64,000 bases of DNA from Convolutriloba macropyga. Taxonomy: Eukaryota. Position numbers and translations under genes: made by a program. The notes below the pieces were generated by a model that was not told where the DNA came from, made no database searches, and was given only the letters and a program-made list of their open reading frames with translations. Positions 5,380 to 50,708 of this stretch are shown piece after piece (position 1 is the stretch's first letter; each line of letters begins with the position of its first letter). The stretch lies in contig NC_134475.1 in assembly GCF_964194025.1 (NCBI RefSeq), positions 19,158,001 to 19,222,000 of the forward strand, read 5' to 3'.

Positions 5380-5381
5380 TA

Positions 5382-7366: not shown

Positions 7367-7764
7367 GATATAATTAGAAGCACAAGTGAACCTACAGCAG
7401 TAAGGAAATTCTGATAAGAATAAACATGCACCAGCGTACAATGAAATGCTAATAATAAAATACGCTCTGGATAAGAACTGAGTTAGTACACACTATAAAG
7501 TGTATCGACCCATGTATAATAACAAAATTTAGAGCATATATCAGAGCACATACACTACCAAAATTAAAACCATATTTGACCCCAGATATAATTTGTTGAA
7601 TTACACGTTGTGCAATATTACTTTAAAAATAGTTATTCATTTTCTTTAAACCTTGCGTTCAGTGCACTTTGCTTTCTTTAAACAGTTCGTTACCAGACAA
7701 ACACCTACCAACAGTCTTCTATCAAATTGGTTTTAGTTTCTTTCTCAAAATTTGGACAAAAATT

Positions 7765-9989: not shown

Positions 9990-10042
9990 GCGCCCAAACC
10001 GACCAATCAGAAAACAGCATTTCAAAACTTCGAATTTGGCGC
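9990..10042 (+). promoter_or_regulatory. Putative PolB promoter with E2F-like, CCAAT and CHR-like motifs
   Basis: GCGCCCAAA 9990-9998, CCAAT 10003-10007, TTCAAA 10021-10026 and TTTGGCGC 10035-10042, 120-170 bp upstream of the ATG. Motif match only. Confidence 0.35.
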
Positions 10043-10161
10043 CTATGCAGTACTGTAGTCTCTAATACTGTAAACCCGAGAAGCCATTTCTTGTTCATTC
10101 GTTTCTACTGTTCGTACTCGAGTTTAACAATTCGTTCTTACTAAAGTTAGACAATTCAAAA

Positions 10162-19341: not shown

Positions 19342-22294
19342 CAACAAGGATGCTCGGTAATGTGCGTAAGCACATAATGTTCCGACCCCGCTCATCCACA
19401 TTCTTAACTTAATTGGCTACCAAATGATGAAGAGATCAAAAACATAGATATCGTTCAATAAACAACAAATGGAATATAATAATGCCACGCTAGAGGGCCG
19501 ATGACAGTTTTTGATAATAGAACTACTAAAAAGGACCATTAAAAAAATCATGAAACAAACATTATTTACAACCACAACTCGATGTCTACAATAAAAGAAA
19601 TCATAAAATCAAACTCGCGTCAGATAAAATCTAAACAAAACAGTTTAATCTATTGGATCTCATGCGACTGGTTAACAGGTCGATAAAAAGTGAAAAATAG
19701 CAAAGAGGTGCAAAGTTAAAAAATACGTTTCTATTTTTGAAAACAGTTAACTTCACAGTTAATGTCATTAGATATCACCTGAAGTCACCGATTTTTTCAT
19801 GTATATCTCCAAAGCAAGCAATTGAGATATACCAGAATCCAATCTTCAATTGCGCAAAAATTTAAAGCCAATGGGACTTACGATTTTTGTTATAAAACCA
19901 AAAAGAAAACCAAAATAGAAAATCCTCTAAAATGTACAAATATCTAAAAATCTCAAACATTTTGAAGTCTCGTAGGAAAAGTAGTAAAAACCCAAGGATC
20001 GAAAGTTTGAAGCTATAACTGTTACCAGGGTTAATTTATAGCTCACTGCAAACGGGTTGTGACATGTGTTTACAAAGACTGAACTACAATTTGACAAAAA
20101 AAACTATTTTAAAAAATGACAAAGCTCAAAAACCCAAATTTGTTTTGGAAACAAATATTTCCAAAGGTCATAACAGATTTAAGATTTCAACAAAAATTGG
20201 GCCTACTAATAATGAGACCACGCCACGACCCAATGAGACAAAATAACAAATACATAACAACCACACAAAGAAGCCAAAACTTCAAACAATTTTACATCAC
20301 ACTCTTCAAGGCACTATACTTATAAGATGTTACTCGTAAGAACTGTAATTCATCTATTACTCCTCATCCTAACATCAATGAGGCTTCCCCATAAAAGGAC
20401 AACGTAGACACGACAACAAAAAGAAACCTGAAAATTGAACAGTATATAAATCTCGAAAAATTTTATTTAAAATAAATGGTCGAAGCAATCAGTCACAACG
20501 TATAACAAAGCGCAATAAAAGTGGATGAATCATCACACGTAACTAAGACTAATAATCAGTGTTATTGAGTTACATGGTGACCAAATTGAAAGCCAAAAGA
20601 TACAGTTGAAAAAAACTGTTTTAAGAAATTCAATTTGAAATTCTTTAAAACAAACAGCTATAAACTGAAATCTTTATCTAGGTGGAGTTATACGTCCTGG
20701 GGAAGCAATTGGGACCTATCGTTATCAGGTGTATGGCGGACAACAACAAAAGGTAAGAGAAACATAGAAAAAACAACAACAAATCCACAAAAATTTGCTG
20801 TATAACTTTAACTCAGCCCAAAAAGCATAAACTATTCAACAAAAACAATTAATATATACAGATACGCATTTTTCAACGCTGTTCAATTTTCCTACTATGT
20901 TTTCTTTCAATTAGATTTGCCAACAATGTGATAATTCGAGAAGGAAACGAAATGGACTCATAAAAATGCAATTATGCTCAAAAATGAAAATGAAATTTTT
21001 TTTTGAAAACACGTAGTATCAAAACAAGGAAAACAAAAATTGAATATAAAATTGTTGCCAACAATAATATATAACTCACACGGAATTGTTGTTTGCCTGT
21101 TTTTACTAAGTCGCCCGAAATTGAGAGAAATAAGATAAAATAGTGGCAAATTTCAAAGACTCACCGATCTTTTCTTAAAACAAATATATTCAAAGTCATA
21201 AGAGACTTTAGATAACAACTGAATGAATTTTCTAGGTTCATCTATACCTAAAAAATTAGCTGCATCTTTGACTGGGGACACTCAGTCGTTGGGCTACAAA
21301 AAGTATAACAAATGAAAGCAAAACTCAAGAAGTCTATAAAATTTTTACGAAAACAATTGGTCAAAGCCATAAAAATCATGAGCTCAACTATTAAAACATA
21401 TTAAAATTTCGTTGGACATCTTTTTTGCAAATAGAATTTGTCATTAAATCAGCCCTGATTTGAGATTCCTATCAGCAATTTACATAAAACCATTTACATA
21501 GCTGAAATGATTTGAAAAAAAGGTCAAGCCCCATTTAAATCTAAAAAATTTTTTATCTTACGGATCCACGGTGAGAACAAGATCAGCCCAGATATTGCTG
21601 CGCATCTAACAAAACAATCAGTTGTTCAAATGATTGCGAAATAGATCAATTTTTAAACGAAATTTTTAGTTCGTCAAAAAAAATAATGTTTTATTTGTAA
21701 TTATCGAGTTTAAGTTTGCAAAAAACTTGCAAAATTATGATCCAGAAGACTCATAAAGCCAGCGGGGTTACAATTAGATCCTTTCTGAGCTTAAGAAGAT
21801 TTCCACCGCATTTTTAAGGTTTCTACTTCCAGCAAATTTAAAGCAGGTGGGCTAAAAAAACAAATGTCATATTTTTCTCGAAAAAAATGTAGCATAAAAT
21901 CTAGCATCTTGATTTTTGAAAAATTTCGCATAAATTCTAGCCAAAAAACTCGGATGGAAGAACTCAGCAACCCCCTTTTATCTTAAGAGATGAAATAAAA
22001 AGCAGTACGGTTAAAAATTTTTCATTTTTGCAAAATTGACAAAAATTTGGTCAAAAATACTGAAAATGTGAATAAAAACAGCAATTATTCACAAACCCTT
22101 AAACCTCGATAACTCCCTATAAAAAGCGAAAAATGAAAAAATCTTTTTAATTCCTTATTTGACGCTGAACTTGCTTTCTAATGATACCACTCACAACTGT
22201 CTACGATGATTATATCCATCGGCCAAAATTGACTGAACAAAAAAACCCATTTAAATATATAGTTACTCCCCCCACAATTGGGGTCGGAGCAATT
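19342..22294 (-). mobile_element. HINE-like family B element
   Basis: Subterminal inverted repeat TTCCGACCCC / GGGGTCGGA; hairpin ATGTGC-GTAA-GCACAT near the 3' end; shared GATACCACTCACAACT...CTACGAT block; non-coding. Confidence 0.75.
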
Positions 22295-23282
22295 ATACGA
22301 CACAGATAGATCAGTTTAATAGCTTCGAAGTCAAGAAAAGTCAGTAAATTGCTTTAAGTGAGCCAGGGAAATTAAATTTCTAGAGGTTTTGAGTTAGCTT
22401 TTATTGATGCCGCACTTCAGTTGTGTTATATGGCGTGATGTCATCATATTTTACCCTCACCTCACGCCCATTCAATTAAGCTAAAGCTAGCCTTACTAAA
22501 CCGTGGCGAGCTACTGACGAATGCAAGCTACTGATAAAGTCAGAACAAAAGAAATGGTCAAAACACAATAAACAAACAAAATACTTTTCGGGATTAAACA
22601 GTAAAGTTTTGACGATGTTACATAAATTAGAGCAATTGTGGTTTTGGAAGCATAAAGTCCACCGGTCGAGGGATTGTATGTGGACACCCGTTCACAATCT
22701 TGTTGTTCTTTCCGCGATTTTTCAAAAATTCTGCGCTGAAAATTCGTTTTGTACAGTTTTTGGGGCCTTACAAATCTTTGTGTTTCTTTGGAGCGGTATT
22801 GTGCTTCTCCTGAAACAGGCGACTATTAAGAGCAGTTATTGACAATTTGTTTTGAAAAAGATTGATTTTCCCAATTCAAGTCTTTCGATTTTGATTATGA
22901 GTTCTCCAACGTACATATGTTGACAAAATTTTCAACCATCCTATTGCTATATTCAGTAGTATGCTGCTTCTGGCAGAGGAAGAACTACGTTTTTTAGCGC
23001 TCTCTTTGAATTAATTGTTTTTTCTCGTGTTTTTGAGCAAATTATTTTTGTCAGAAATGTTTCGGCTGTTGTGCTTTCGCAAACTTATAGAAATTGATTT
23101 GTCAAGTCGACCGCAGTTATCATAATTCGATTATCATTTGAAAAAAACACAAACACGTGAATTGTAAATTCGGAATCATGTAATTGGCAGACTCCAAAAG
23201 TTTGAGCGCTATATAAACTTTAGCGCGCATTTATCAGAGAAAAATTTATGCGTGCACCAACAACAAATTTAATTTAAAATGT

Positions 23283-26242
23283 AACAACAAGGATGCTCGG
23301 TAATGTGCGTAAGCACATAATGTTCCGACCCCGCTCATCCACATTCTTAACTTAATTGGCTACCAAATGATGAAGAGATCGAAAACATAGATATCGTTCA
23401 ATAAACAACCGATGGAATATAATAATGCCACGCTAGAGGGCCGATGACAGTTTTTGATAATTGAACTACTAAAAAGGACCATTAAAAAAATCATGAAACA
23501 AACATTTTTTACGACCACAACTCGATGTCTACAATAAAAGAAATCATAACAAAATCAAACTCGCGTCAGATAAAATCTAACAAAAACAGTTTAATCTATG
23601 GAAAAATTTTGGGACCAGTTCTCAATGCGACTGGTTAACAGGTCGATAAAAAGTGAAAAAATAGCAAAGAGGTGCAAAGTTTAAAAATACGTTTCTATTT
23701 TGAAAACAATTAACTTCACAGTTATTAATGTCATTAGATATCACCTGAAATCACCGAAATTTTCATTTATATCTCGATAGCAAGCAATTCAGACATACCA
23801 GAATCAAATCTTCAATTGCGCAAAAATTTAAAGCCAATGGGACTTACGATTTTTGTTATAAAACTAAAAAGAAAACCAAAATAGAAAATCCTCTAAAATG
23901 TACAAATATCTAAAAATCTCAAACATTTTGAAGTCTCGTAGGAAAAATAGTAAAAAACCCAAGGATCGAAAGTTTGAAGCTATAACTGTTACCAGGGTTA
24001 ATTTATAGCTCACTGCAAACGGGTTGTGACATGTGTTTACAAAGACTGAACTACAATTTGACAAAAAAGAACTATTTTAAAAAATGACAAAGCTCAAAAA
24101 CCCAAATTTGTTTTGGAAACAAACATTTCCAAAGGTCATAACAGATTTAAGATTTCAACAAAAATTGGGCCTACTAATAATGAGACCACGCCACGACCCA
24201 ATGAGACAAAATAACAAATACATAACAACCACACAAAGAAGCCAAAACTTCAAACAATTTTACGACATCACACTCTTCAAGGCACTATACTTATAAGATG
24301 TTACCCGTAAGAACTGTAATTCATCTTTTTCTCCTCGTCCTAACACCAATGAGGCTTCCCTATAAAAGGACAACGTAGACACGACAACAAAAAGAAACCT
24401 GAAAAATGAACAGTATATAAATCTCGAAAAATTTTATTTAAAATAAATGGTCGAAGCAATCAGTCACAACGTATAACAAAGCGCAATAAAAGTGGATGAA
24501 TCATCACACGTAACTAAGACTAATAATCAGTGTTATTGAGTTACATGGTGACCAAATTGAAAGCCAAAAGAGACAGTTGAAAAAAACTGTTTTAAGAAAT
24601 TCAATTTGAAATTCTTTAAAGCAAACAGCTATAAACTGAAATCTTTATCTAGGTGGAGTTATACGTCCTGGGGAAGCAATTGGGACCTATCGTTATCAGG
24701 TGTATGGCGGACAACAACAAAAGGTAAGACAAACATAGAAAAAACAACAACAAATCCACAAAAATTTGCTGGATATTTTTAACTCAGCCCAAAAAGCATA
24801 AACTATTCAACAAAAACAATTAATATATACAGATACGCATTTTTCAACACTGTTCAAATTTCCTACTATGTTTTCTTTCAATTAGATTTGCCAACAATGT
24901 GATAATTCGAGAAGGAAACGAAATGGACTCATAAAAATTGCAATTATGCTCAAAAATGAAATTTTGAAAACGCGTAGTATCAAAACAAGGAAAACAAAAA
25001 TTGAATATAAAATCGTTTCCAACAATAATATTTTACTCACACGGAATTGTTGTTTGACTGTTTTTACTAAGTCGCCCGAAATTGAGAGAAATAAGATAAA
25101 ATAGTGGCAAATTTCAAAAACTCACCGATCTTTTCTTAAAACAAATATATTCAAAGTCATAAGAGACTTTAGATAACAACTGAAAGAATTTTCTAGGTTC
25201 ATTTATACCTCCTAAAAAATTAGCTGCATCTTTGACTGGGGACACTCAGTCGTTGGGCTACAAAAAGTATAACAAATGAAAGCAAAACTCAAGAAGTCTA
25301 TAAAATTTTTACGAAAACGATTGGTCAAAGCCATAAAAACCATGAGCTCAACTCTTAAAACATATTAAAATTTCGTTGGACATCTTTTTTGCAAATAGAA
25401 TTTGTCATTAAATCAGCCCTGATTTGAGATTCTTGTCAGCAATTTACATAAAACCATTTACATAGCGGAAATGATTTGAAAAAAAGGTCGCGCCCCATTT
25501 AAATCTAAAAATTTTTTTATCTTACGGATCCACGGTGAGATCAAGATCAGCCCAGATATTGCTGCGCGTCTAACAAAACAATCAGTTGTTCAAATGATTG
25601 CGAAATAGATCAATTTTTAAACGAAATTTTCAGTTTGTCAAAAAAAATTATGTTTTATTTGTAATTATCGAGTTTAAGTTTGCAAAAAACTTGCAAAATT
25701 ATGATCCAGAAGACTCATAAAGCCAGCGGGTTTACAATTAGATCCCTTCTGAGCTTAAGAAGATTTCCACCGCATTTTTAAGGTTTCTACTTCCAGCAAA
25801 TTTAAAGCAGGTGGGCTAAAAAAACAAATGTCATATTTTTCTCGAAAAATCTGATTTTTGAAAAATTTAGCATAAATTCTAGCCAAAAAACTCGGATGGA
25901 AGAACTCAGCAACCCCCTTTTATCTTAAGAGATGAAATAAAAAGCAGTACGGTTAAAAATTTTTCATTTTTGCAAAATTGACAAAAATTTGGTCAAAAAT
26001 ACTGAAAATGTGAATAAAAACAGCAATTATTCACAAACCCTTAAACCTCGATAACTCCCTATAAAAAGCGAAAAATGAAAAAATCTTTTTATTTCCTCAT
26101 TCGACGCTGAACTTGCTTTCTAATGATACCACTCACAACTCTCTACGATGATTATATCGATCGGCCAAAATTGACTGAACAAAAAAAACCCCATTTGAGT
26201 ATATAGTTCCTCCCTCCCCACTAAAGTGGGGGTCGGAACAAT
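23283..26242 (-). mobile_element. HINE-like family B element (duplicate copy)
   Basis: Same termini and body as 19342-22294. Confidence 0.75.
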
Positions 26243-28090: not shown

Positions 28091-30551
28091 ATGAATCATC
28101 AACAAGCCCAGATGATGAGAAACCGATCCATGGTGCCTCCAAATGCTGCTCAAGTTCCTCCAAATCAAAACATTTCAATTGCTAATATGCCACAGTATTA
28201 CGATCAAAACCCACCCAATACAAATCAACTCCCGATGTCTGCGTCAATGCAAACAAATCTCCAACCTGGTATGGGTCAGTACCAACAGCAGCCTGCAAAT
28301 ATTAGCAATGTTCCACAAAGCCAATCACATTTAGGTGGTCAGTCGCAGCATCAGCAACAGCAGCAACAGTCTACTAATGTGCAAGGTCACCCTAATTCCT
28401 CGTCAAGTCATGGTGCAAGTCAGAATACCACGTCCTCAAGTGGCAGTGATTCGAACGCAGCTAAAGCAACCGACGTTGTTAATAGATTGAAAGTTTTATC
28501 TGATCGACATTTGAAAGATTCCTTGAGCAAGTTGATGACGTGTTGTGTGATGGCTGTGAATAACCAAGGAGGGAGAGATAATGGTGCTACTGACGTGAGT
28601 TCTAGCACCAGTGGAAGTGCAGTGACTTCGTCCTCGGGTGGTGAAAAGGACCCCGCGAACGAATACAGCAACGTCGCTTTGGGTCAAGCTGCCGAAGAAT
28701 GCATGGTGAGTTTTAGTTTTTCCAGTAGTTAAAGTTTGGTAAATATAAGGAGGGTATCAGAGGGAATTATATCAGTGTGTATATTGTTGTTATAAAGAAA
28801 TATTCAGAAAAGATTTTTATGGTGGAAACTGAGTGGATGAATCCCTGGCAATTCTAAGGTTTCTTTATTAGTAGCCGGAAAGCGATAGCGAAGCAATTGT
28901 TGCTCTTACCGTAGATTTTTTTCAAATGCAAAGAATTTGAATTGTTTTGGGGAGCTGTCTTTTGAATCGAAGAGTATGCTTTCTACGGGTTTTTTTTAAA
29001 ACCGGAAGTACTACATTCAAGTGGCGTTTTGACCTTAAAAGCGAAAGTGAGTAAATTTATAGTGTGAACTAGCATCTTCTGAGCTAGATAACTGTTTTGT
29101 TCACTGTACTTGTTGAGTAAATGAGTTTTTGACTTCGAATAGTTCCTCCAAAAGAAGGTGCATTTAGCTAACCGTTTTAGCCGTTTTTCGTCGAGTTAGC
29201 TTATTTTTTGGAAAAAAATAATATTTGATCCAGGCTGAAGATATGCAGATGTTCTCTGCAGTTCATTTTACGGAGCCCAGTAATACGTTCCAAGAAAAAA
29301 ATGGCTAAATTTTGTTTTTTTTTTCAATAAGTGACCTTTTTCTTTAATCAGTATGGCAAGGACATTTTATTAAATTTACCATTGCTCTCCTGAGTTTTTG
29401 TATTTACATGAGTTACTTTTCTTTTTTAAAAAAATAAATTTATATATATTTTTCTTATAATGTTTTTGGTTCAACTAGAATAAACATTTGCATGCACCGC
29501 CAATTTTGTGTTGCTGATAATCCAATTGTTTTTTAAGTGCGTAAAATTCAATGGAAAAAGGTTCAAAATGTTGTTCAAACATTATTCTGACATTTTTGGC
29601 ATTTGATCTTAGCTATGTACACATTGTCTTATTGAGTCAAGATAATGAACTCACATTGGTTTAATGAATAAGGAGAAAAGCCGTGGCTGAATGAAGAATT
29701 TTACCTTTTTCTATTTTGTTTTCTTGTTGTTTTTCAAATTGTTTAAGAGCTTACTATTTTTTTGCTAAGTGTTCGTAATCTATTCTTAACATTTTTGGAT
29801 GCTGTTTGTTTCTTTCAAATAAAATCTGTTTAGCATAGTGACCATAATGTTGAGTCTTAATTGCTCTGCATTATCAGCATTTAACAATTTCTTCAATTTG
29901 CATTCCTTTTTGTTGAAATTTTCAGTAATGTAGTGCAATATAATGTAATGTCGTCCTAAGAATGCGATGGGATTAGCATTTCATTTTGAGAGTTTTCATT
30001 TTGGCTTTCAATTTCAATCTTTTTCTTTTTATTTTGCATTCCGTATTCATTTTCGAATTAATTGAAGTAAGAAGTCACCGATACTGGAATTCGAAATATT
30101 GGTCAAGCTCTTTCAACAGTTTCAAAAAGAGTTCTAGAAATCAATGATTTTTGCTTCCTTTCAAATACAATTCTTAAATTTGCTTGTAATGAGTCGTTGC
30201 TCAAATTGATAATCCCTTTAGGCATTGCTGGACCAAATTGAAATGAACCTGCAATTATCTATCGACTGGACAAATCAGCTTAAAATCATGGACAAATTCT
30301 GCTCACCTCAAATGAGTCAATTATCTCCTCAGGATCAACAATACAGAAATATTACTACCGAAGATTTCCTCAGTGGCTACGCTGTCCATAAAGAGTACTC
30401 CGACAAAATGACAGCAACTATTGATGATTTTTTCAAGCAACTTTCTTCGATATCATCTAATGAGCATTTGTCATCGACTGATGGAATGGGAACTACTGAT
30501 AGTCATGATTCAAACAATGTCAACAGTTTTGCGTGTTCGGCTCTGCTTTGA
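28091..30551 (+). CDS. MED29: Mediator subunit 29 (Intersex); exons 28091-28705 and 30222-30551 (about 314 aa)
   Basis: Q/N/P-rich N-terminus, then DVVNRLKVL...LKDSLSKLM...EECM|ALLDQIEMNLQL, matching the MED29 core; GTGAGT donor at 28706, TTTAG acceptor at 30221, phase 0. Confidence 0.8.
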
Positions 30552-34573: not shown

Positions 34574-35357
34574 GGTTGAAAAGGAAATAATATGCACCCA
34601 CTAAGCTGATAGGGGCACACCGAAAAGATCCGAACTATAATGGGCTCTAATAAAATTATTTGAAGCGTCTAAGTTTATTTATTGCCCCCATACTGTGAAG
34701 TCTACATTGAAATCAAGCTTACGCCTATCATTCGAGTGCGAGCGGTCCTAGTTTATAATTTTTGTTTTACGGCGATAGCTTGTTTTAAAGGTCCTGATCG
34801 ATTGTTTCAGCAACAATGGGCGAACGTTTACGAACGGTATTTCTCCTTGGTTTGTTTTATTTGATGGCTGGAGAGTTGTTTCTCCAGAAGTCTTAACGGG
34901 TTCTGGGGTACGTAACATAGATGACGAAGTAATATTTTTCACCGTTTCAGACGGGGATAGATACAAGAAACAAATGTCTATTAAAATTGGATTTTGTTGG
35001 CTTGTTTTCTGTGAGAATGATTTGTATACTGATCGCATCTTGAGCTTGAATCGAATATTTCGGCATTAATAGTAGTGCAACATCGTTATTTTAAGCATTA
35101 TATGAATCAGTTATAATTGCTGTCTAATTTTACATGTGGACATTTCAAAATCAATGGAGGAAGTTTGTACACAGCCATAATTGTTAACTAGATTTGATTA
35201 TGAAAATTTGAAATTAATTTTTGTCGCATTTCCATGTGGTACGCTTGCTCGGGTCGTTTTATGAGCTACTTAGCTAATCTAGCAAGTCAGTCAAGTTCAC
35301 TGTTTTTTAAAATAGTGGGGTGAGACATCTGACTTAGTGATGCCCTATTTCAGTTTT

Positions 35358-38300
35358 ATGGTACTTCAATCGTCGTTCAATGCTGGAGTTCAATGTAGGA
35401 CTCTCTTCAGAAAAGTTCCAAAGCGGGGTAAAGTGAAATCTTCAGAACTGCTGCGTCATTATCTATCTGTGCACAACTATCCACCTTGGACTGCGTTTTT
35501 TGTGCTTCAGAAAGACATTAATGACGACCATTATCCCAAAGCGCACTACAATTTCTCGATAGTTGATACAGTTGAAACGGAAGTCAATTATCATGTCCTG
35601 AGAACACGCTGCTATCCTTTTGTCAAATTCCATTGTTCGAAGCGAACACCACAGGTTAGTTTGTATTCTAGCGTTTTTTGCTTCGTTGCTCCTATGCATT
35701 TTAAGCTCAGAAACATTACTGAAATTTTCTTGCATCAAGTATGATAGAACATCTCTTGCAAAATAGATTTTTTTTATATTCAGAGGCCGGTAGTGCAGAT
35801 GAGGTGGTACAGTTTATGCTGTAGTCTGTTGCTATCAGTCGTCACACACCGGTCCGTCTGTAATTAGTATGTCTAACAATTGACAACGTAGTTTGACTTG
35901 GTTCTTGATGTTAAGTAACTCTCCTTTCAATAAACATTCACAACGTTAGTATTTCCAACGTTGAGGTATGAACAATTGTACCTGCAAATTGGCCCAGCCA
36001 TCAGTCAAAATAAAAAGCGATGTACCGTCAGGCTCCTGAAAGCCCTAGCTTATGATTGTGGATACGAAGCTCAACAAAACTGCACTACGTCAACCTATAA
36101 CCTTTTGGAAATTAAAACGGAACTGTTTGGATAGGAAACAACAATTGAAGTTAGAGGTCGAAAATTACCTAAGATGGTAAAATCTTTCGATGTGGAAACA
36201 CCTTTACTCCAAAACAAGCAGAAATACTCAGCTACAGGACGCCGCAGGCCTAAAATGTAAAAAGACACTTCGCAAAAAACTGGTAATCTGCAAACACTCA
36301 GGAAATGTAAATTCTAGATAGAGACGTCTGTTTTAGCATCAAAACATTGTTTTTTTTTCAAGATGCTGCGAAAAAGGTGAAGTTATTTAGCTGAAGTTTG
36401 AAAGAGATACAACAGGGGAAAATATTTGAGTTCTCAGAGGAAACAAAAAGCCTGAGTGGGTAACCTTCAATTACGAAATACTTAGTTGCATTTAAATTAT
36501 GATAAATTTTATCAAAGAGTTTTTATAAAATATGTTTTGACTATACGCGAACTCTTTAGTTTGATTTTTTTTGAATTATACACGATTTTGATTGAGCTTC
36601 ATCAGTATTTATCCATAACTCTTTGAGAAATAAATTTTTTTTACATCTCAAAGTAAATTCATGACCTCTGATTCAAAGGTAACTTTTTTCATATTATACT
36701 TTTCCCAACAAGAACATTTTGGTCGAAAACAGGGGTAAATGTGGCTGTAGAAGCTTCTTCAGTCTAAATAAAACTAATATTCTCATGTTTTATTAGAGTA
36801 ATCTAAAACGAACCCAAAAATCATTAAGCAAACAGCAGCTCCAAGTCACGTGTATTCAGTGAAACCCATTCGCTAACTTTCACCAGCTGAGGGGCTGGCA
36901 AAAGTTAGCAATTGTGATTTGATTGTTCCAAAAAATGCCAATTTTTTACTGCTTTAGATATTAAAATACAAAGCATAAAAAATATTTAAGTCTATTTTAG
37001 GACAAAGTAGCAGTAAAAGTTATGCAATCTTAAAAAGAAAGAGCTGTTTTCTTCTTCAGACCTTTTTCTATCTGACAACAATGATTTAATATGAAGTTTT
37101 TGGTAGCTTCTATATACCCGTGAACTTAAATGTGAAAGCTCTCTGAGGCAGCTTAAAAAATTGTAATAGTTTTATGCTGTAGTTTTGGTTTAATTAATCC
37201 GCTAAGGAATATATTTTATTAATATATCTAAAAGTTTAAATTGTCAAAAAATTCAAAATTCCATAGAACCATCAGCTACGTAAAAAAAGTTCAAAAGAAA
37301 GACGTTATACTTTACTAGAGAGCATTTCAGACGTCCTAGTTTTTGGACAGAAAGGCGAAACGTTCATCAAAAGAGAACTAAAAAATTCAAAAACTGCGTT
37401 AAGATGATTAACAACATAGAGAGACCGAACATTTGAAGTAAGAATTGTTTTAAACTGCTTTAATATAAAAATGAAAAGATCATGCCCGAACAAAATTTCA
37501 AAAGTAAAATGATGTTTTGAGAAATGTGTCGTTTCTAAATAGGTAATCTCCATAAAAATAACTGAAATTGAACGCACTAAAGCTGCCTCTTTCCAATACG
37601 AACTGTCATCATTAATGATAATCAGGAGAGCTGCCAAAAAGCACTATGAGAAGGAGAACTAGAATAATGTCGACAATTTTTTAAAAACAAATATTTTTTG
37701 AAGTAAAAAAATTTATCATAATCGTAAGAGGCGAATCACACAGTTGAAGCTAAGCACTTATCGAAATAGTTGGTTGGTTTTTAATAACAGTGGTGAAGAA
37801 TTCTGATCATAGTGGTGAAGTCAGCAAAAGCTCGCGAACATTTTCTCTTATCGCCAAAAAAGCCGTTCGATTTCTGAAGCTTAATGTTGTTTGTTTCCAC
37901 CTGTGCTACCTCAGTTGAGTTAACTTTTCTGCTACCTGATGTGCCCCATCAAGTGTGACTTCGAATTGAACTTCAGATCAAAAATTGTGAAGACTTCCTT
38001 AAAAAACATTCTAAATTATGAAATTAGAACTCAATTACAGCTGACGGAGAACGTGGAGCTGCTCCTAACATCTCATATTTGTTGTTGTTCGGATGAATGA
38101 CACAAATATGAGAAAAAAATCATAAGCGCCTCAAAGGCGATCAAAATTTCAAAAATGTTGAAACAAATTCTGATTTTTTAATGTGCCAGTGTAGTCCAAA
38201 AGAGTGAAAATGTACACAATGCAGAAGAAGTCCTTGTTCATTCGTGGAGGTAAATGCTTGCGTTCTTATGATCTTGTGCTGACTTTACAAAATGGCAGTG

Positions 38301-38534
38301 CTGTTTTAAGGAGACTAGTGTTGGTGATCTGAAAAAAATTGGTTTCAGGATTTGTCGGTGGAGAATTATCTATTCACAGTCCTGAAGATTTTGAATTTTG
38401 GGTTTCCTTGTCTGCTGTACGGACTAGCGGGTCGCTTTCTAGCTAAATACGAAGAGTTTGTCTTCATAGAAACAACTGAGCAAACTGTTCGTCTGTTATT
38501 TTGGTACAAGGAAGACAAAGGCAGTCCTTTCTAG
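35358..38534 (+). CDS. C15orf61: C15orf61-like (DUF4528) protein; exons 35358-35654 and 38349-38534
   Basis: SSELLRHYL...PPWTAF...NYHVLRTRCYPFVKFHCSK...Q|DL...LKILNFGFPCLLYGL...KEDKG matches the family; GTTAGT donor, TTTCAG acceptor, phase 0. Alternative ATG at 35340. Confidence 0.88.
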
Positions 38535-38543
38535 TGTGGAACA

Positions 38544-39793
38544 ATGTCGGAAACAGGAAATGTTACAATATGTCTTCTCTGTGGTTTACCAGGTTTGTTG
38601 ATTTCCCTGTTTTGTTTGTGAATTCCCTGAAAAATAATTATTTCACTTGTTTTTACCTGAAGACCCTAAATTGAGATTATTCTGAGTATCAAAATCAATC
38701 GCGCTTTCTTGCCCAGTTTCGACTTGGTGTAAAGCTGTTGTCTTTAATACTAAAGTTGAATGGTGTGTGAGTGCATCCATATTCAGTTACTGTGCGTACC
38801 GATTAATTGTTTGGTGCATAGTAATTTTATAAGCTGTCAAAAATTGCCTGTGTTTAGCTTGTTCGTCTCTATAGAGTTCACATCGTTTCAGGAGCTGGTA
38901 AAACGACGTTAGCTCGGCAACTTGTCGATAGATTGTCGGCGATGTTTAGTTTTACTTTGTATCATTATGATGACCTTATTAGTGTCAACTCTGATCTCAG
39001 CCTCAGTTCATGGAAAGAGCGCCGTAACGAAGTATTGAGAAAGTGTCGTAACGATATTGAGGATTCAAATGCGACTGAAACGAAAGCTTCTCGTGTGTTT
39101 CTAATTGATGACAATATGTACCTGCAAAGTATGCGATACAGCTATTTCCAACTTGCGAGGTTTTTGACTGTTGGTTTTTGTCAGATTTTTATCGAATGTC
39201 CTGAACAATTGCTGAAGCAGAGACTTAGAGAAAGAAACAAATCGAAAGAGTTTGAGCTAATGGGAATTTCGGAGGAAACGTTTTCGCGAATGTCTATAGC
39301 CTTCGAACCACCAAAAGTGCAAGTCAATGGGTGGGAATCGAACACGGTTACCGTGGAACCAGATAAGAAAATTGAGACAACTTTGGCAATGGTCGAGGGA
39401 TTATTTTATCACTCTATGAAATATCCAGTTCAACCTGTGCCTGATCGAGAAAAGATTGTTTGTGGGGTCGACTCTTTTCACCACCGGGCAGATCTTTTAT
39501 TGAGAACTATAATTAAAGCTAGAATAGAAGAGAGCGACCCAAAACTGAGAGGAAACATTGCGAAGAGCTTGACTGAGAACAAAAAATTGTTGCTCGAGTC
39601 ACTTCGAAAGAAATCGTTGGCTGATTTTTATCTATGTGAACATTTGGACTCTGTGGACCAAATATGCAGAGATAAAGTTATGTATGCTTTGGAGGTTTTG
39701 GACTGGCCCTTGGATAAATGGGACCCACCGGATGTTTGTGAACAAGTTGTGACTGAATGTTTTGTAACATTGACGGGAAATAGCTCATCTTAA
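38544..39793 (+). CDS. PSTK: L-seryl-tRNA(Sec) kinase; exons 38544-38592 and 38892-39793
   Basis: Splicing builds Walker A CLLCGLPG|AGKTT; also YDDLI, LIDDNMYLQSMRY...LAR...GFCQIF, FEPP...WE and HRADLLLR. Confidence 0.9.
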
Positions 39794-39925
39794 TACGAGT
39801 AATATCACTCAATTGAATATAATATCAGATATCATCTTTAAAATTTAGTTATGGATAAATTTTGCATTTATGATAAATTTTAGTGTCAGTAGTATATTTT
39901 TTCTAGGCATGTTAGTTTTCTATAA

Positions 39926-40266
39926 TTAATTGCTCTTGAACGAAGTTTATAGCAATTATTGTTAACGTGTTGGTCTTTTTGATGCAATTTTTTCGCTAGC
40001 GCATTTTGCGCTTTTCTTCTAGAACATTCTTTGACTTCTCAAGTGACTTTTTCACGCTTTCGTTCTTCATTTTTGGGTGACCTTTATTGCTCTTACTCCG
40101 AAATAAAGCTTGTTGCTAATATAAAGTCGGTTGCAGCGTAAAAATCAGGGCCAAATAGTGCAGATGGTTTTGAAGCGGGAGGTCATTGGTTCGAATCCCA
40201 GAGGGGGCAAATGTTTTTCCATCCGCCTGCCGTTCGAGAGCAATTCTTCCGACATTAGTCGGTTTA
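39926..40266 (+). mobile_element. HINE-like family A copy with tRNA-like Pol III A/B boxes, between PSTK and CDC45
   Basis: Family A termini with hairpin CCGAC-ATTA-GTCGG; A box TAGTGCAGATGG 40156-40167; B box GGTTCGAATCC 40188-40198. Confidence 0.8.
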
Positions 40267-40293
40267 TGTTTATATTTGTTTTCAGGTTTAAAA

Positions 40294-43200
40294 ATGCTGA
40301 CAAAAGAACTGAAGAAAGACTTTTATGTGAAATTGCAGAACAAAAGAGTGATAGTGCTGGCAAGCTATGAAGTTGATAGTGTGGCTGCTTGCAGAATTTT
40401 AATCAATCTGTTCAAAACAGATAGTATCCAATACACTTTAGTTCCAGTCTTTACATCTGACAATATAGAGCAAGCTTTTCTGGAACATAATGCGCATTGT
40501 AATGACTTCCTCTTCATCAATTGTGGAGCAACCATTGACCTCTTGGAACTTCTGAGTCCTGGAGGCATGATCAACTTCTACATTATTGACGCTCATAGAC
40601 CTATTAGTGTGACTAACGTGTTTTCTGAGCAGATTCACGTTCTCATTCGTGATTCGGAACCTATTGAGGAGATCCCGAAGTTTGATGACGTTTTCCGCGA
40701 TGACGACGAGGATGATGACGAAGGAATTGAGGAGGATCCCAATGCTGAAGATGGCGAGTCCTCCGAAAATGAAGGTGAAGGCGACGAGAATCGAGATCCC
40801 GAAAGTGCAACTGATCCTAGCACTGGGTTCTCGAGAAGGCGAAAGAAGAAAGGTTTCGACGATGAGAAATATCTCCGATTGGCAAAAAAGCAGCGAGAAA
40901 GGCGTCAATGGGAGGACAAACGAACACAAATTTTACGAACCTACGAAGAGTCAACATTTTTCAGTTGCTCCTCGGCGGAAATATGTTACGAATTGTCTTG
41001 GCTGCTTTCGAAAGATACCAACAATCTTCTGTGGTTAGCTATTATTGGTCTCACAGATCAATACTTCTTGAATCGGGTTTCAAAAAGTGGAACCAACTAC
41101 CTCAACGAACGTGACTTTTTAGGATCACACGTACGTCGTCTCAACAATTGGCTGGAAAATGATTCAAGTTCAATCGTATCTGTTGACTGTATGAAAATAA
41201 GTTCCGAGAAAGAGCTGAGAATTTATCTTTACAGACATTGGACTATATGGGAAAGCTTTTACAACTCACTTTTCACCATGTCTCAATTTAAACTATGGAG
41301 CCTTAAGGGTCAACGAAAGCATTTAGACTTTCTATCGTCTATTGGATTGTCATTACAGAATTGTAAACGTAAGTTTAAGTGTATCGATACGAAAGTGAGA
41401 ACCGAATGCAGCTCCAAAATCATTTCAACATATGAAAGGTTGTTCAGGCAAGGTTTGAAATCGAACATATGGTTTAGTTCGTTCACAGCCCAGTATGGAG
41501 TTATGAACAAGTTCAGTGCCCTGGATGTGACTATAGCTATGAATGCTCTATTGGAGGACCCGGCGACTGTTGCTAGCTCGACTGAGAAGTTCATGAGGGC
41601 ATTAGATGCGTTGTCATATACAAATTGTCAAATGGTGGCTGATTCGATTGACAAAGCCAAATTTCTACTTCAAGCTGTATGTGAACAGGTAAATTTGTTT
41701 CAACGTGTTGCGCTCACAAAATACTATTGGTTCCAGATAGTTTGTATGGTTTGAGAAACTTTTTCTGACTTTCAGCATCGTGTTTATTGGCATCAACATT
41801 TTTTTGTATGCGTGAACAAACAGATTGTCAGTTTTTAAGCATCGTAAGTGTAACTTAAACTTGAAAAAGGATTGGTAATGTGAGAGCACAAGACGTTCCA
41901 AACTTCTCAATGCGGAACCATATATCAAAGTTAGGAGCAAGACAAATTCGTCTGTTAACAGTGGATCTCAAGTGTGAGATGATTTTTAAGGAGGCGAGTT
42001 TCCAAACAACTGATAGAATTCTGAATTGTTCGATCAGTATTAAAATAGCTTTAACTAATCACAAGATTTGAGCTTAACCAAAGCAGTCCACTTCATAATT
42101 AGCTACTGACATGTAAACGAAATATTAAATATTAGAAAATCATGCTATTCGACAAATCTGTAATTAATAAATGTAGTACTAACAAGGAGGCTCGCTAATG
42201 TGCGTTCGCACATAAAGTTCCGACCCCGCTCATCCATATTTTTGGTATAAACGTCTACCAAATGAGGAACGGATAGAAAAACCCCAAAAATTATTTTTCA
42301 AAAGAAAGTGTAAGACAAAACAATTGCCTCCAACGCAAAAAGCTCAGAGGAGTACAAAATGACGCATTAGACTGATGAGATCAGCAATTATTAAAAAAAG
42401 CAAGTTAAGAGGAACAACAAAATCAAACAACAATAACAACAAACATTAATTACATCCAAAACTTATTACCATTAAAAAAAAACTTTTTAACAAGGTCAAA
42501 ATAGCGTCAGATAAAACTAAAACTAAACAAAATAACTTGTACTACAATAAAAAAAAACATATCAGACGACTCCATAATAAGGCTTGGTAACAATTGTAAC
42601 AATTAGACAAAAAAGAACAAAAAAACAGCAAAGTTAAAACGTTGCCTTATAATTTTAAAAACAATTTATTTTTAAGTAATGAAAACCATTAAAAAGTAAT
42701 TGAAAACAGCCAACATGTTTTTGATCAAATACGCTACTACAGGAGGGCATTAAGACCTGTCATCAGTAAATTTTTTATGTGGTTGCAAAAAGAACAAGAA
42801 ATAGGGACAGCAAACAAAAATTCGACTAAAACGCTGTCGAAGCCGTAGCGCCATATTTTGCCCCTCAAAATATGTTCTTTTAAGCCTTCCTCGAAAGCCA
42901 ATAATGTGGTATTCGACCTCCAATTAATAGGAATATGTAATAAGTAGATAAAACTGCCTAAAAATTAAAAAAAATTGTGAAATCCAGTACAATCAAAGCC
43001 AGAAAACCATAACTTAACGCGTAAAACCGAAAAAAAGGTTTAAATTTTAGTTAAGCAGAAAGAAGAGGCATTCTTTGTTTGCTGACACTACAAGTTGACC
43101 AAATTAAGAGTAAAATAGTGACAAAGTTTAATAAGTCACTTTATTTAACCTTTTTAAGTCAAATTAAAACATTTTTAAGTCAAAACGACCATAATCTTTC

Positions 43201-46200
43201 GATTGAAGAAACTAGACATATTAAGTTGGGAATGGTTAGAAATCCAATGGAACCTATCGACTGTGAGCTTTGATTTGAATCGTTCTGTTCTTAACTTAAC
43301 TTAAAAATGAATGAATTTTTTTAAAAAAAGACTGACTGATTACAATCCGAATATTTGAATATTTTTTATAACATCCGATTATAACAGTCCAAGATTGGAG
43401 TAGAACCAGCCCTGCTATTGCTGTTCGTCCGTTAAGAAAACTCAATTTTTTCGAATGTTATATATCTTGATAATTTGTCAGTTAAAAGATCAAAAATAAA
43501 TGCTGCGTTTTTGATAATCACAGAGTAAAGTTAGCAAAAAACGACAAAAATTTAATCCAGACTACTCCCAAAAAAGGCTGAATTTTGAAATATTTATCCA
43601 AAACTTTTGCCATAAAAATTGATTCAAAATAGTCAACAATACTTTATTGTCTTTAAAAATAAAATCAACAGTACTATTGTTAATAATTTTTTCATTTTTT
43701 TAAGCTAAATTGAAATTTTAGGCAAAAATTCCGGAAAATGTGATTAAAATGAACGCAAATCGGTCTAATGTTCACAAAAATTTAAACCACGATAACTCGC
43801 TCTAGAAAAGGAAGTTCATAAAAATCTTTTTAATTCCATATTCTACTCTGGACGGGCTGTTTAATGATACCACTCACAACTCTCTACGATTAATATATCG
43901 ATCGGACAAAATTGTCTGAACAAAAAAACCCAGTTGAGTATAGACTTCCTCCGTCTCCCCCTTAAGAGGGGTCGGAAAAATTATGGAAAAATATAGAAAC
44001 CAGCTAATTTTATTTCAACTGCTTAGCATAATTGAGACATGCTTTGTCAATTTTTTTTACATTGTTTCTATTGAAATGTTATTATTGATTGTTTCCTCAG
44101 ACAGTCAGTCTCTGCAACAAGTTTTTATCTGCGCTCTAAATCGCTGTTATTTTAGTGGAGTGAGTGTTAGTAGAGCTGGACGCCTGGTTCCATTTTATGA
44201 TGAAAGTAGTAGTCATTTTTCCAACTGTTTGAGCTTCCTAGCTGCATAGAGCAGGAGGCAGATTGAAGAGAGCGATTGTGAGCTCGTATATCGTAAAGAT
44301 CTTGTAATCTTTCGTGTGCGGGCAAATTCTTTGTTTAATGCACCTTTGTTTGTTTCAATTGCGGCATTTCAGAACGGCGTACTTCAACTAATTGAAAATT
44401 CTCATGAAGGCAGATCTGTTGCCAATTTTTCTCAACTGTAATTTTAATTTTTTACCAGCATAGGTTTTCTTGAAAAATGAAAGTTTTCGGGACAACATAT
44501 AATTCCGGAGATCTGAAAGTGCTTAGGTGCAGAAGAACTTTACTCTAACCTTTAAGGAGAACAAATAGTGTCAAAGCTCATAAGTTTTACTATTTTACAA
44601 AAACACGTCAAAATTTCAATGAAACTCTAAGACATAGGTTGGAGACTCCAAATGAGGTGATAGGTACCTGTTTAATGAGACAAGGGAAACTCATTAATAA
44701 GATTTGAAATCAGACAACAAAAAGAGGAAAATAACTGGCAAAGCCCAAAAACTAAAATTCAATTAGAGTACTAATGGTCAGTCACGAAAACCAAAAAATA
44801 AATTAAGCACTTGAGAAATATAAACTACTGCTTAAGTAAAGGCCAATTCGAGCTGTCATTATTGGTACCGTGTTAAGAATAAACAGAACAACAGTTGACT
44901 TCAACTCAAAATTTCATGAATGTTTTGGAAATAAATGGCTGTGAAGTTATCAAAAACAGTTAATATTAATTAAAAAGGTAAAGAGGATAAAAAATGACTC
45001 ATCGGAAAACTGTGGAGTCTTGTCATCAATAAGATGAAGTGATTGGTAATACAAACAACAAAAACAGCGAATGCTGCCTATCTTCAAATATTCACAAATT
45101 TTCTATGAAAAAATTGTCAAAGCTACAAAAACCATTAGTTGTCAATTGAGGGATTCAATTAACTGCTCCAATAAAATCTTTTGATCATTTTTGATAGCAT
45201 TCAAGAAAAGTCTGACCGAGAACACGGTAGTCAAATTCCAAAATGTGGACAATGAAATCGCTCTTTAAAGTCGAAAAACTTGAGACGCAGTTTCTCACTA
45301 ATTTGAAAATTATTGCAATAAAATTAATCGCTCTTTGGCTGTCCGAACTTTCTTGCTGTGCCCAGAAACGCCACGCCTATTTCACTATGATCAGTCCAAT
45401 ATGACTTCGAAATTGTAAACAGATCATGAAAAACGCTAGCGCCCCAATACGGTTCAAACTGTTTTATATGATCAAGAGAAGGGGCAATAAAAGCTCTGCA
45501 GAGCTATCGCTATCACAGCAATTAAGAATGACTGGCAGTTCACAGTAAGAGCTAAATTCGATTTTTTCAAAAAAAAATGTTCTCATAGTGAGAAGACAAA
45601 TGTTAAAATTTTCGGCCTCGTTATTTCTCAATAAAAAGTTGATATAATTTTCAGAAGTTTTCAATGATAGCACTTTTTTAAACCTAAATCGGCATGTTGA
45701 TTTTAAAAAGCCATAAAGTTTCAAACATCCAAATTAATTTGGATATAGCTATTTGATTCTACGGGGTCGGAAGGAACAGAAAATTGTGAAGCGTTGAGTT
45801 TTTACTGAATCAAGATGATTTGATTTGCAGAAAACGTACATGTTAAACGGCATTGGACCTGATGACGTTGAGCCAAAAGTGTCGGCTCATTGACGTCGTG
45901 TTTTGATCTTTAATTGCGCTCTAACTATATTTAATTGCGCTCTAACAAGAATTATTGTAAACATTTTGATCTTCTGCAAAGTTTTTGCTTGAACTTTTTG
46001 ACTTTTCGAATGCCTTCTACGCCGTTGAGTTCTAATTTGCTCGGTATAAATTTCACTCTCATTCACACGTGTAAGTAGCTGAAATCAGTGGTGGAAGTTC
46101 AGTACTAAAAGTGAAATGTAATTTAATTGCGCTCTAACGATATATGCAAGCATTTTTGTAAACATTTTGATCTTCTGCAAAGTTTTTGCTTGACCTTTTT

Positions 46201-49200
46201 GACTTTTCGAATGCCTGTTACGCCGTTGACTGTTTTGTTTTGCGTGATATATTTTTCTCTCGCATTTACAAGTCTAAGTGGTTCAGTACTATTGGTCTAA
46301 TGTAAAGTAAGCCAAAATTGGAGTAATTTCTTGCACTTTAATTGTTAGCTGCGAAGCGATAGTGGCTATTATTGGTATTTTTTTAATTCGTCGTCTCCAT
46401 CGATGATTCTTGCGACCATTGATTTTTTCAATTTCACTGACTTCTACTGCTTTGCAGTTAAAATTTGTGTGCGTAATGTCATTTTTTGCTTTTAATTCAA
46501 TTGCGTGATTTACCTGGCTCGAAAAAATGACTTCTAAACTCACCTAATGGATTTAGTGAACATTCGCTAGTTAAAGGTCAATAGTGTGCATCTAAGTAGT
46601 GCCAAACGTATATGCCCTCATTCATAAATGAAATAGTCTTGTGTTTTTGATTTTGAATATTAATTTTGAAAAAGCTCATGGCTTTTTCCGTATAAAGCGT
46701 ATGTGTCTCTTAAAAATGACAGACCGAATCTAACCCAAGACCTCTAGTGGTCTAGTAATGGACTGGTGGTCAATCTGTCCGTCTTATTTCCTTAGTTATT
46801 TCAATTCCATGGAAAGAGATTCAAAAAAGTTTGTCCGAGAAAGCCGTAGTCACATTCTGTAATGTGGACAGTGAAATCGCTCATTGAAAAGCTGGAGACC
46901 CAGTTTCTTACTAATTTGAAAATTGAGAAAAGCAATAAAATTAATCGCTCTTTGACTGTCCTAACTTTTTTGCTGTCCTTAGAAACGCCACCCCTATTTC
47001 ACTTTGGTCAGTCCAATATGACGTACTAAATTCTAAACAGATCTTGAAAAAAGCCAGCGCCCCGATTCGGCTCAAACTGTTTTAAATGATCAAGAGAAGG
47101 GGCAATAATAGCTCTGCAGAGCTATCGCTATTTCAGCAATCAAGAATGACTGGCAGTTCACAGTTAGAGCAAAATTCGAATATTTTAAATCGTTCTCATA
47201 GTGAAAAGACAAGTGTTAAAAATCTCGGCCTTGTTATTTCTCAATAAAAAAATTGATAATTTTTTCAGATTTTCAAAAGTTTTCACTTATAGCACTTTTT
47301 TAAACATCGGTCGGCCCATTGATTTTGGAAAGCCATAAGTTTCTAACCCCCAAGTTTATTTGGATATAATTGTTTGATTCTGCGTTGATGGAAAGATCGT
47401 AAATTAGCGAATCGTTGTGAAGCATTGAGTTTTGACTGAATCAAGATGATTTGGTTTGCAGAAAACGTACATGTTTAACGAATCTCACAGCATTAGACCT
47501 CATGATTTTGAGCCAAAAGTGTTGGCTCATTAACGTCGTGTTTTGATCTTTAATTGCGCTCTAACGATATATGCAAGAATTTTTGTAAACATTTTGATCT
47601 TCTGCAAAGTTTTCGCTTGACCTTTTTGACTTTTCGAATGCCTGTTACTCCGTTGACTGTTTTGTTTTGCGTGATATATTCTTCTCTCGCATTCGCAAGT
47701 TTAAGTGGCCGAACTCAGTGGTGGTTCAGTACTATAAGTCTAATGTAAAGTAAGCCAAAATTGGAGTAATTTTTTGTACTTTAATTGTTAGCTGCGAAGC
47801 GATAGTGGCTATTATTGGGAACATCGTATTTTTTTAACTCGTTGTCTCCATCGATGATTCTTGCGGCCATTGATTTTTTCAATTTCACTGACTTCTGCTT
47901 TGCAGTTAAAAATTTGTGTGCGTAACGTTATTTTTTGCTTTTAATTCAATTGCGTGATTTACCTCACTCAAAAAATGACTGCTAATCTCACCTAATGAAT
48001 TTTAATTGTTATGAAGGTTGCTAGTTAAAGGTCAATGGTGTGCATCTAAGTAGTGCTAAACGTATATGCCCTAATTATTGAGTATCATAGTCTTGGGTTT
48101 TTGATTTTGTATATTAAGTTTGAAAAGTTCTTAGGGTTTTTTCCTTCTAGAGCGTATGTCTCTTAAAAATGACAGTCCGAATCTAACCTAAAACATTTAA
48201 TGGTTTTTAAGGAACTGGTGGTCAATCTGTCCATCTTATTTTTTTATTTGTTTCATTTCCATGGAAAGCCGTCTATCGCGGCTTTTTTCCGACAATTTGC
48301 CGGGTAAGTTTTAGTGTTTATGATGTTATATAATAACTTCTAATGGCGTTTTTTGAAGTCATTTTTTTGAATATAGATGCTTCCCCCTCTCTCATTCCTA
48401 CTTGACCAAATGAAACAGGCTGTAGTAGGTTCCAGCTCCCACTAGTCGTTCCAGAGCAATTCCCGACATTTGTCTGTTAGGTTTGAATCATCTGCCACCG
48501 CCTCCTTTTTTGATATCTTATTTTTAGTACGGTTAGGTTAGTAATTATTTTGCATGATTCTTCGAGTCGTTTCGGTTATTTCACCTGCTGTTTTTTGAGC
48601 TGAAGCAAGTTTGTTCTTGACTTCAACTTTGGGTTTTGTTTTCGAACATTGACTTGTTTTAGAATGTTGACTTCTCTTTGCAAACATTGGATTTCATATA
48701 CAATAATTCATAGCTGCTGTCAGCCTCTCAACGGCTATTGTTTTGGCGCTCTCCTTTCAAAAATTTGCTTATACTTATGATCACGTTTTTCGTTTTACAT
48801 AAGTCACGATTGTCACGTTTGACTTCCGGCTTACCTCACTCATTGCTTCAACTGCGTGGATTTTAATTCTGTCACGCATTGAATTACTCAATGTGGTGAA
48901 TGCTTTCAAAGTCAAAAGAGCGAAATCAAAAGATCGAAAGAAACATGATAAGCATATAAAACTGGGTCATTAAGTCATAGTGCATTAGGTTATCAAAGTT
49001 CATTAAAGCGATTACTAGCTGGAATTAGTATTATGCTGAATAGTGTTCAGTATAGAAGCTGAATTAAGTTTAATTTAAAAATCCCAATGTGCGGTAAGCG
49101 GGTTGACGGTGACTATTTTCCGGCAATTTGCCGGCTATGTTTAGGATTTGCTTCTAATATTCATGGTCGAAAGGATTTTTTTCCATAACAGTCTCTTCTT

Positions 49201-50708
49201 ATTCAAACTACAGATATCCCCACGTACTTGTCCGCCCGTTCCCCTTCCCCCTCCGCCCGCCTACCTTCCAACCACGCCTCAAACTACAGGCACACACCTT
49301 CTCCCCCACCTGCCTGCCCCAGCCCTACCGTACTACCGTACTTACACCTCCTAACTTACCCCTGTTACCTGCCAACCTCCCCTCCAACTACCCCACATAA
49401 CTGCACCTCAATCCTCTAAACTAAAATTCAGTTTTTTTAAAACAATGTTTAGTTTTATGAAGCTATTAATTTCGTTATTTCTTTTCTTTGATTGTTAATT
49501 GCTCTCAAACGAAGTTTGTAGCAATTATATTAGTCCTGTCGGTCTTTTTTTTATGCGATTTTTCGCTTGACCAATTTTTCATCTGACGCTTTTGACTTTT
49601 CGTCCTCAAAAACGGGATAAACAGGTAGCGCCCAGTGGGCATTATGTGCTCTTAGAGCCTTTCAGGTCTGTTTCAGCTCAAACTGTCTTGGAGACTTATA
49701 CTTATGGTGTGAGGGGCGGTTCTTAGAGGTTGACACCCCCCCTTTGTTGACCCCCCCACCCCCACTATTGGCTCCACCCCCCCTCACCGCGCTTCCCCCC
49801 CCCCGTGGCTAGCTACTGACCAAGCCAACCGCTCGCCGGTCGTTTGAGAGCAATTCGCCCGACGTTAGTCGGTTATGTTTCTTATTTTAGGTAAGGATAG
49901 GTTTGTGTTTATATTGCACGAGTCTTCGAGTCGTTACCTGTATTCTATCGGCTATGTTTTTATGCAAAATTTTCTTAAAGCTTGATGCGACTGTGAGCGA
50001 AAGGCAATTAAAGGCTTTGTAATACAGTGGTAAAGATGTCAGGCTGTCAAACATTTTAGAACTACGCCCTCTTCGAAATTAAATTGCCCCCGTCTGTCGT
50101 TCAAGAACAATTGATCCGACTATAGTTTGGGTTTTTTGGGCGTGCTAACAGAGTACTATAAGGGGCGTGGGTATTTAGTACAATAGCGGAAATAATTCAA
50201 AAACTGAAGATTATGAAGTGTTTTAAATTTACACAATTAATAAAAAAATTTAATTTGAATTACAAATCACTGACAATCAAAATTGTTACTTTAGACGAAG
50301 AACGTGCTGTCAACCAACAGGGCAGTAAACACGGGCCAATTTGTTCTCGTTTCTCTCAGCTCCAGCATCAAAGATGCCAAATATTTCTCCAATTTCAACG
50401 CCTTCAAACTCCTGGGCTTATATATTGTCAATTGCATAGTCTCAAGCAACAACCGATTGGGTAATAAAAGTTTTGTCATCACTGCACCTTCTTCGAGCGA
50501 TGAAAATAACACTGTTGTTTTGGGACTACCACCGCTGCTATTAATGGAAGAAAAGTACTCCAACATATTCGGAAAAGCATTTGAAACGGCAGCTGACATG
50601 ACAAAGTCTAGAATTTATCAAAACTATTTTGAAAATAATTATCTGGACATCAGAACGGAAGATCTTGTCAAGTTTTTGGATGCTTTAACAACCATTATGG
50701 CATCCTAA
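40294..50708 (+). CDS. CDC45: Cell division control protein 45; exons 40294-41688 and 50295-50708 (about 602 aa)
   Basis: EVDSVAACRIL, FINCGATIDL, IDAHRP, acidic insert, LLWLAIIGLTDQ, LYRHWTIWES and terminal NIFGKAFETAA...KFLDAL; GTAAAT donor 41689, TTTAG acceptor 50294, phase 0, 8.6-kb intron. Confidence 0.95.
42180..43982 (-). mobile_element. HINE-like family B element in the CDC45 intron
   Basis: AACAAGG...ATGTGCG-TT-CGCACAT...TTCCGACCCCGCTCATCC at the left end; CCCCTTAAGAGGGGTCGGAA at the right end. Confidence 0.75.
45201..48268. repeat. Older tandem duplication (about 45201-46816 and 46820-48268) in the CDC45 intron
   Basis: Shared blocks such as AATGTGGACARTGAAATCGCTC, GCTCTGCAGAGCTATCGCTA and TTCCATGGAAAG; copy 1 has an extra internal duplication of about 200 bp. 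Confidence 0.85.
49495..49880 (+). mobile_element. HINE-like family A copy, C-rich core
   Basis: TTAATTGCTCTCAAACGAAGTTTGTAGCAATTA ... TCGTTTGAGAGCAATTCGC-CCGAC-GTTA-GTCGG-TTATGTTT. Confidence 0.8.

Follow-up and report, generated by a model that had tools for sequence, protein, structure and literature searches.

A probable spliced-leader-resolved operon of C15orf61, PSTK and CDC45 in the acoel Convolutriloba macropyga, with an upstream stop codon that coincides with a candidate trans-splice acceptor

In the spacer-less operons of Ciona intestinalis and the minor SL1-type operons of C. elegans, the upstream gene directly abuts the AG at which the downstream message receives its spliced leader (SL) (PMC1488885, in the portions available). 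The same portions report that most Ciona operons have no canonical poly(A) signal, that one molecule is argued to yield only one of the two messages, and that the Ciona cases were shown by cDNA (PMC1488885). In the flatworm Macrostomum lignano, operons called from leader-bearing reads hold two to three conserved housekeeping genes, separated by spacers of about 100 bp that are inflated by repeats, and a threshold of 1 kb after subtracting repeats was applied (PMC8629364, sections available). For acoels, the published record concerns trans-splicing itself: a reported 30.2% of Symsagittifera roscoffensis genes receive a leader by trans-splicing, and the sequence of that leader has been published (PMC9911081 and preprint). 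The accessible text of these two sources contains neither "operon" nor "polycistron", and their pipeline uses trans-splice sites to divide transcription units; the genome paper cites the S. roscoffensis RNA-seq as public (PMC9911081). A 2008 table enters acoel operons as "?" (PMC2481426, part available), acoels appear in PMC12460157 only in the reference list, and our literature search found no papers describing acoel operons. Here we describe an acoel locus, known from its sequence, that would work in the same way as the SL-resolved operons known from flatworms, Ciona and C. elegans (SL1 type) (see also PMC12582326 and PMC7986045, available portions).

The locus lies in a 64,000-nt stretch of the Convolutriloba macropyga genome, referred to below as the window, and all locus coordinates are positions in this window on the + strand, read 5' to 3'. 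The initial annotation had proposed that three co-directional genes, each with an acceptor-like AG just before its ATG, form an operon. Its gene names hold: DUF4528 is matched by both exons of C15orf61, PSTK aligns with named L-seryl-tRNA(Sec) kinase homologues, and CDC45 is likewise confirmed. The AG sites are also where it had placed them, ending at 35353, 38534 and 40285, with the ATGs starting at 35358, 38544 and 40294. The three genes are arranged head to tail on the same strand. Each is single-copy, since a genome search matched only the window's own copy, and the search found no retrocopies of C15orf61, PSTK or CDC45 that might serve as a fossil record of leader addition.

C15orf61 is preceded by the acceptor-like hexamer TTTCAG (35348-35353), a candidate trans-splice site for the first gene located 4 nt 5' of the ATG. 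Its first coding exon (35358-35654, phase 0) ends at a GTTAGT donor at 35655. The second (38349-38534), which was absent from the initial annotation, covers positions 66-126 of the 126 in DUF4528 and ends at the PSTK AG. Joined across a 2.7-kb intron with several donor-like sites inside, the two exons form an open 160-codon frame. PSTK has coding exons at 38544-38592 and 38892-39793, the latter ending in the stop codon TAA, and CDC45 has coding exons at 40294-41688 and 50295-50708, the latter also with its stop codon. Contigs from four sequencing runs of unrecorded kind run through the introns and are uninformative on splicing. Rfam and tRNA scans of the window returned 0 matches, and no leader-like sequence was found within the window itself. 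Elsewhere in the window is a Polinton-like element (198-14504) with Pfam matches to an A32-type ATPase, an rve integrase and an adenoviral-type protease; its long frame at 10066-13773 resembles a protein-primed polymerase. Tandem duplications are present at 18452-22293 and 22398-26242 (3.9 kb, 95% identity) and, inside the CDC45 intron, at 45199-48268 (about 1.6 kb, 81-86% identity).

The junction between C15orf61 and PSTK is exceptionally tight. The stop codon of C15orf61, TAG at 38532-38534, is itself the AG that precedes PSTK, and the hexamer TTCTAG (38529-38534), made up of the last Phe codon and this stop codon, is the candidate PSTK trans-splice acceptor. Only 9 nt separate the two reading frames, and the PSTK ATG is in frame both with the C15orf61 stop and with the phase-0 exon 1. 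The stop lies at a conserved position. From a set of 150 representative C15orf61 homologues, 54 aligned to exon 2; in 24 the alignment extends close to the exon end, and 18 of them terminate at the same place. The PSTK ATG is a conserved start as well, matching the Met of the named S. roscoffensis PSTK. The conservation of both ends leaves no space between the two genes for a 3' UTR or a promoter, and any C15orf61 3' UTR must overlap PSTK. The 45 nt 5' of the PSTK AG hold no AATAAA, and a scan of 38535-40300 showed that the first AATAAA or ATTAAA past the C15orf61 stop comes after about 970 nt, at 39512 inside the PSTK coding region. C15orf61 transcription must run into PSTK in any case.

The second junction is wider, and most of its width is due to an insertion. 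The distance from the PSTK stop to the CDC45 ATG is 500 nt, as the initial annotation had given it, and the mobile element that it had put at roughly 340 bp is a high-copy element of 346 bp at 39926-40271, with borders set by alignment with 11 other copies. It is non-coding, sits in a T-rich site and shows inverted repeats in subterminal position as well as a hairpin at its 3' end; we take it to be a non-autonomous Helentron/HINE-like element. It carries both AATAAA and TATAAA. The host part of the spacer 5' of the element (39794-39925, 132 nt) is AT-rich, lacks AATAAA and ATTAAA and includes one weak donor-like GTTAGT at 39911. The pyrimidine tract and TTTCAG acceptor-like site (40272-40285) lie outside the element, 8 nt 5' of the CDC45 ATG, and an acceptor-like hexamer falls within 22 nt of the element end at 2 of 16 other copies' ends. 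Once the element is subtracted, 146 nt of 78% AT separate the PSTK stop from the CDC45 AG, a spacing that fits the repeat-corrected value of about 100 bp in Macrostomum (PMC8629364, sections available). The junction would be an ordinary short U-rich spacer that was later stretched by a transposon.

SL RNA genes are present in this genome. A 27-nt part of the published S. roscoffensis leader has 2,784 genome matches at up to 2 mismatches, against 0 for a reversed control, and at 1,271 exact matches the next two bases are GT. Thirteen of 20 fetched leader-plus-GT loci have a single conserved body in common, with a donor that reads GTAAGT or GTAATT, and 11 of these 13 SL-RNA-like loci belong to a tandem array on C9. 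In the one copy that was folded, a first hairpin encloses the donor and another one lies past a U-rich stretch. The array occupies 23.14-23.75 Mb of C9 and contains at least 91 SL-RNA-like copies, mostly 1-3 kb apart and on both strands. The host therefore has the leader, GT donor and hairpins that an SL-resolved operon draws upon, with the same leader sequence and the same multicopy gene organization as in S. roscoffensis (PMC9911081, text available). At 12 dispersed loci the leader is joined to varied downstream sequences, and these look as retrocopies of trans-spliced RNAs would.

Retroelements also suggest which hexamers may act as acceptors. The leader stands first in all 30 fetched copies (27 by pattern, 3 decayed; 53 genome matches in total) of the 5' end of one LINE. 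In one and the same ORF1 subfamily, the leader is joined directly to AGATG in some copies and is separated from it by a hexamer in others, the intervening hexamer being TTTCAG, TTTTAG, TTCTAG or, once, TATTAG. The same loss of sequence up to TTTCAG is seen in a second retroelement family (locus L022 compared with L020). The simplest reading is that TTTCAG, TTTTAG and TTCTAG can serve as trans-splice acceptors; TTTCAG precedes C15orf61 and CDC45, and TTCTAG precedes PSTK. The leader-headed LINE encodes an endonuclease and a reverse transcriptase, and the acceptor hexamer often follows its leader, with the ORF1 ATG 2 nt later. This layout suggests that the LINE 5' end is regenerated by trans-splicing from read-through transcripts and not by a promoter. 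Leader-bearing transposable element transcripts have been reported in Hydra (PMC12220107, part available), and our literature search did not find a LINE design with a built-in leader and acceptor.

We compared the AG sites with background ATGs and with control genes. TTTCAG, TTTTAG or TTCTAG occurs within 9 nt of 74 of 3,639 background ATGs (2.0%) and within 30 nt of 186. Three of three genes would arise by chance with a probability of about 1e-5, a figure to be read with the motif set and distance having been chosen after seeing the data. The controls were Sm/Lsm and proteasome genes at 21 loci, with starts picked by eye; L097 and L106 (start not located) and L104 (a second copy) were excluded. 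A hexamer lies within 9 nt in 5 of the 18 remaining gene starts and within 30 nt in 9, one of the 18 having too little upstream DNA. Control starts are thus enriched about tenfold over background ATGs, and a hexamer before the ATG is real yet ordinary for genes of this genome. Because half of the control genes have one, the AG before the ATG suggests trans-splicing and not an operon.

Close same-strand neighbors are likewise found away from the locus. A scan for frames of at least 62 codons took in both strands at 20 of the 21 control loci (96 and 105 frames). An unrelated gene follows on the same strand 173-849 nt downstream at 5 of the 20 loci and on the opposite strand at 1, one same-strand reverse transcriptase match having been left out of the count; the 5:1 strand excess has a binomial probability of about 0.11 in a sample that is small and biased to short genes. 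Such same-strand gaps represent tight packing for a 1.18-Gb genome, within the limits of a small sample biased to short genes. For the five downstream neighbors, a hexamer or close variant lies within 15 nt of the ATG in three and at 33 nt in one, and the fifth has none within 60 nt. As further candidate junctions, an Sm/Lsm-family gene is followed by a TsaD-family gene (173 nt), by V-ATPase AC39 (340 nt), by an AMP-binding gene (384 nt), by a metallo-beta-lactamase-fold gene (a weak match, 801 nt) and by ribosomal L18A (849 nt), each on the same strand. An unnamed 309-codon frame also ends 547 nt before an Sm gene.

Linkage of PSTK and CDC45 appears to extend to relatives. The closest CDC45 relative is 81% identical and falls in a cluster with a named S. 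roscoffensis protein, and among named animals the next ones reach about 40% identity at most, which marks the host as an acoel-like worm; metagenome contigs gave one distant CDC45 match (22%) among the matches listed. PSTK and CDC45 orthologues are found on equal-sized contigs in three other assemblies (639,381, 225,073 and 517,750 bp), and the named S. roscoffensis PSTK and CDC45 both sit on a 78,912,118-bp record. Their RefSeq accession numbers are not consecutive, which is uninformative as a synteny test. From these placements we infer PSTK-CDC45 linkage in at least two other species, in the sense of linkage within hundreds of kb and not of adjacency. C15orf61 has only one close relative, on a 40,638-bp contig whose size matches no PSTK contig, and C15orf61 together with PSTK gave no literature match.

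Taken with the spacing and the leader genes, the arrangement points to a real unit, probably an operon, that would add a new lineage and has one junction of an unusual kind. Same-strand genes at very short spacing, with a candidate acceptor site just 5' of each downstream ATG, are found at both junctions. We consider it probable, on the sequence features described, that C15orf61-PSTK-CDC45 is an SL-resolved operon with one spacer-less, Ciona-like junction. The operon proposed in the initial annotation is strengthened by the presence of leader genes, by a spacing tighter than it had given (9 nt, and 146 nt without the element) and by linkage that looks conserved; its main argument, an orphan AG before each ATG, is non-diagnostic. 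One promoter upstream of C15orf61 would drive a precursor through PSTK into CDC45, and the single leader would be joined at 38535, at 40286 and perhaps at 35354 too. The promoter would probably lie in the approximately 700 bp at 34640-35350, which match no fetched locus. Further upstream on the same strand, a two-exon, 314-codon gene at 28091-30551 has no family match. A suspected resemblance to Med29 was supported neither by Pfam, the Atlas and PDB nor by a genome family search. A duplicate of exon 2 of this gene and of the 4 kb next to it, 88-95% identical, is present about 49 kb upstream. We left this gene out of the unit because 4.8 kb, with repeats and a duplicated segment, separate it from C15orf61.

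At the first junction, the precursor would be cut directly after the C15orf61 stop, with the branch point within the last C15orf61 exon. The product of a single precursor would then be either a C15orf61 message, which stops at the stop codon or continues into PSTK, or a leader-capped PSTK message. The locus resembles the Ciona and SL1-type cases in the absence of a canonical poly(A) signal, in the single leader type seen and in the mutually exclusive outcome expected (PMC1488885, portions available). It differs in that the AG is here the upstream stop codon itself, with no 3' UTR before the cut, an arrangement that the available portions of that paper do not describe; our narrow literature search found no acceptor identical to an upstream stop codon. 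An upstream 3' end that coincides with the downstream AG is allowed by the sequence. The extreme spacer-less form, in which the C15orf61 message would have no 3' UTR, poly(A) would be placed on the stop codon, the branch point and pyrimidine tract would be contained in the last codons, and operons would be widespread in acoel genomes, is possible, though less likely than not. At the second junction the likeness is to Macrostomum, which is of a different phylum, in spacer size after repeat subtraction, in the conserved housekeeping genes and in the number of genes per unit (PMC8629364, sections available).

The sites could instead belong to separately promoted neighbors, with a PSTK promoter in the C15orf61 intron and a CDC45 promoter in the PSTK tail or the element, each gene having its own outron trans-spliced or a 5' UTR exon cis-spliced. 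The AG is as compatible with single-gene trans-splicing or a 5' UTR intron as with an operon, the orphan-looking acceptor of half the control genes says the same, the 2.7-kb intron could house a PSTK promoter, and donor-like sites upstream of the acceptors exist in that intron and, weakly and before the element, at 39911. The AATAAA and TATAAA of the element add to this, and the element could end the PSTK message. Also weighing against the operon are the 2 of 16 other element ends with an acceptor-like hexamer within 22 nt. Set against these points, only 146 nt of host sequence lie between the PSTK stop and the CDC45 AG, C15orf61 transcription enters PSTK regardless, and the linkage appears conserved, so that we regard independent promoters as unlikely. 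The 9-nt in-frame gap and the absence of a canonical poly(A) signal between C15orf61 and PSTK raise a different explanation, in which both are carried on one mature message and the AG is not a trans-splice site. PSTK would be translated by reinitiation 9 nt past the stop, or a fusion would result from stop read-through or from cis-splicing of exon 1, which is phase 0 and in frame with 38535, to that position. The S. roscoffensis PSTK is a separate 318-aa protein with the same start Met, none of the 150 C15orf61 representatives shows PSTK similarity, and the hexamer matches one that the LINE copies suggest for trans-splicing; a shared message is therefore still less likely.

That the AGs arose by chance in AT-rich DNA, with none of them used, is very improbable. 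The motif set was partly picked after seeing the data, the elements insert in T-rich sites, and a second in-frame ATG at 35340 precedes the C15orf61 AG, which could for that reason be unused. The background rate of 2.0% per ATG nonetheless stands against three of three here, and the roughly tenfold enrichment at control starts argues in the same direction.

The preferred reading, an SL-resolved operon with one spacer-less junction, bears on acoel gene expression in several ways. A stop codon that doubles as a trans-splice acceptor, if true, requires the same bases to serve in coding, in termination and in splicing. The overlap of stop and AG also offers a direct test of the proposal that the upstream 3' end is produced by trans-splicing itself. 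Whether such operons are of ancestral or convergent origin has been called an important question (PMC1488885, portions available). Acoels branch deep among bilaterians, and acoel operons, if true, would bear on this question for SL-resolved as well as for spacer-less operons.
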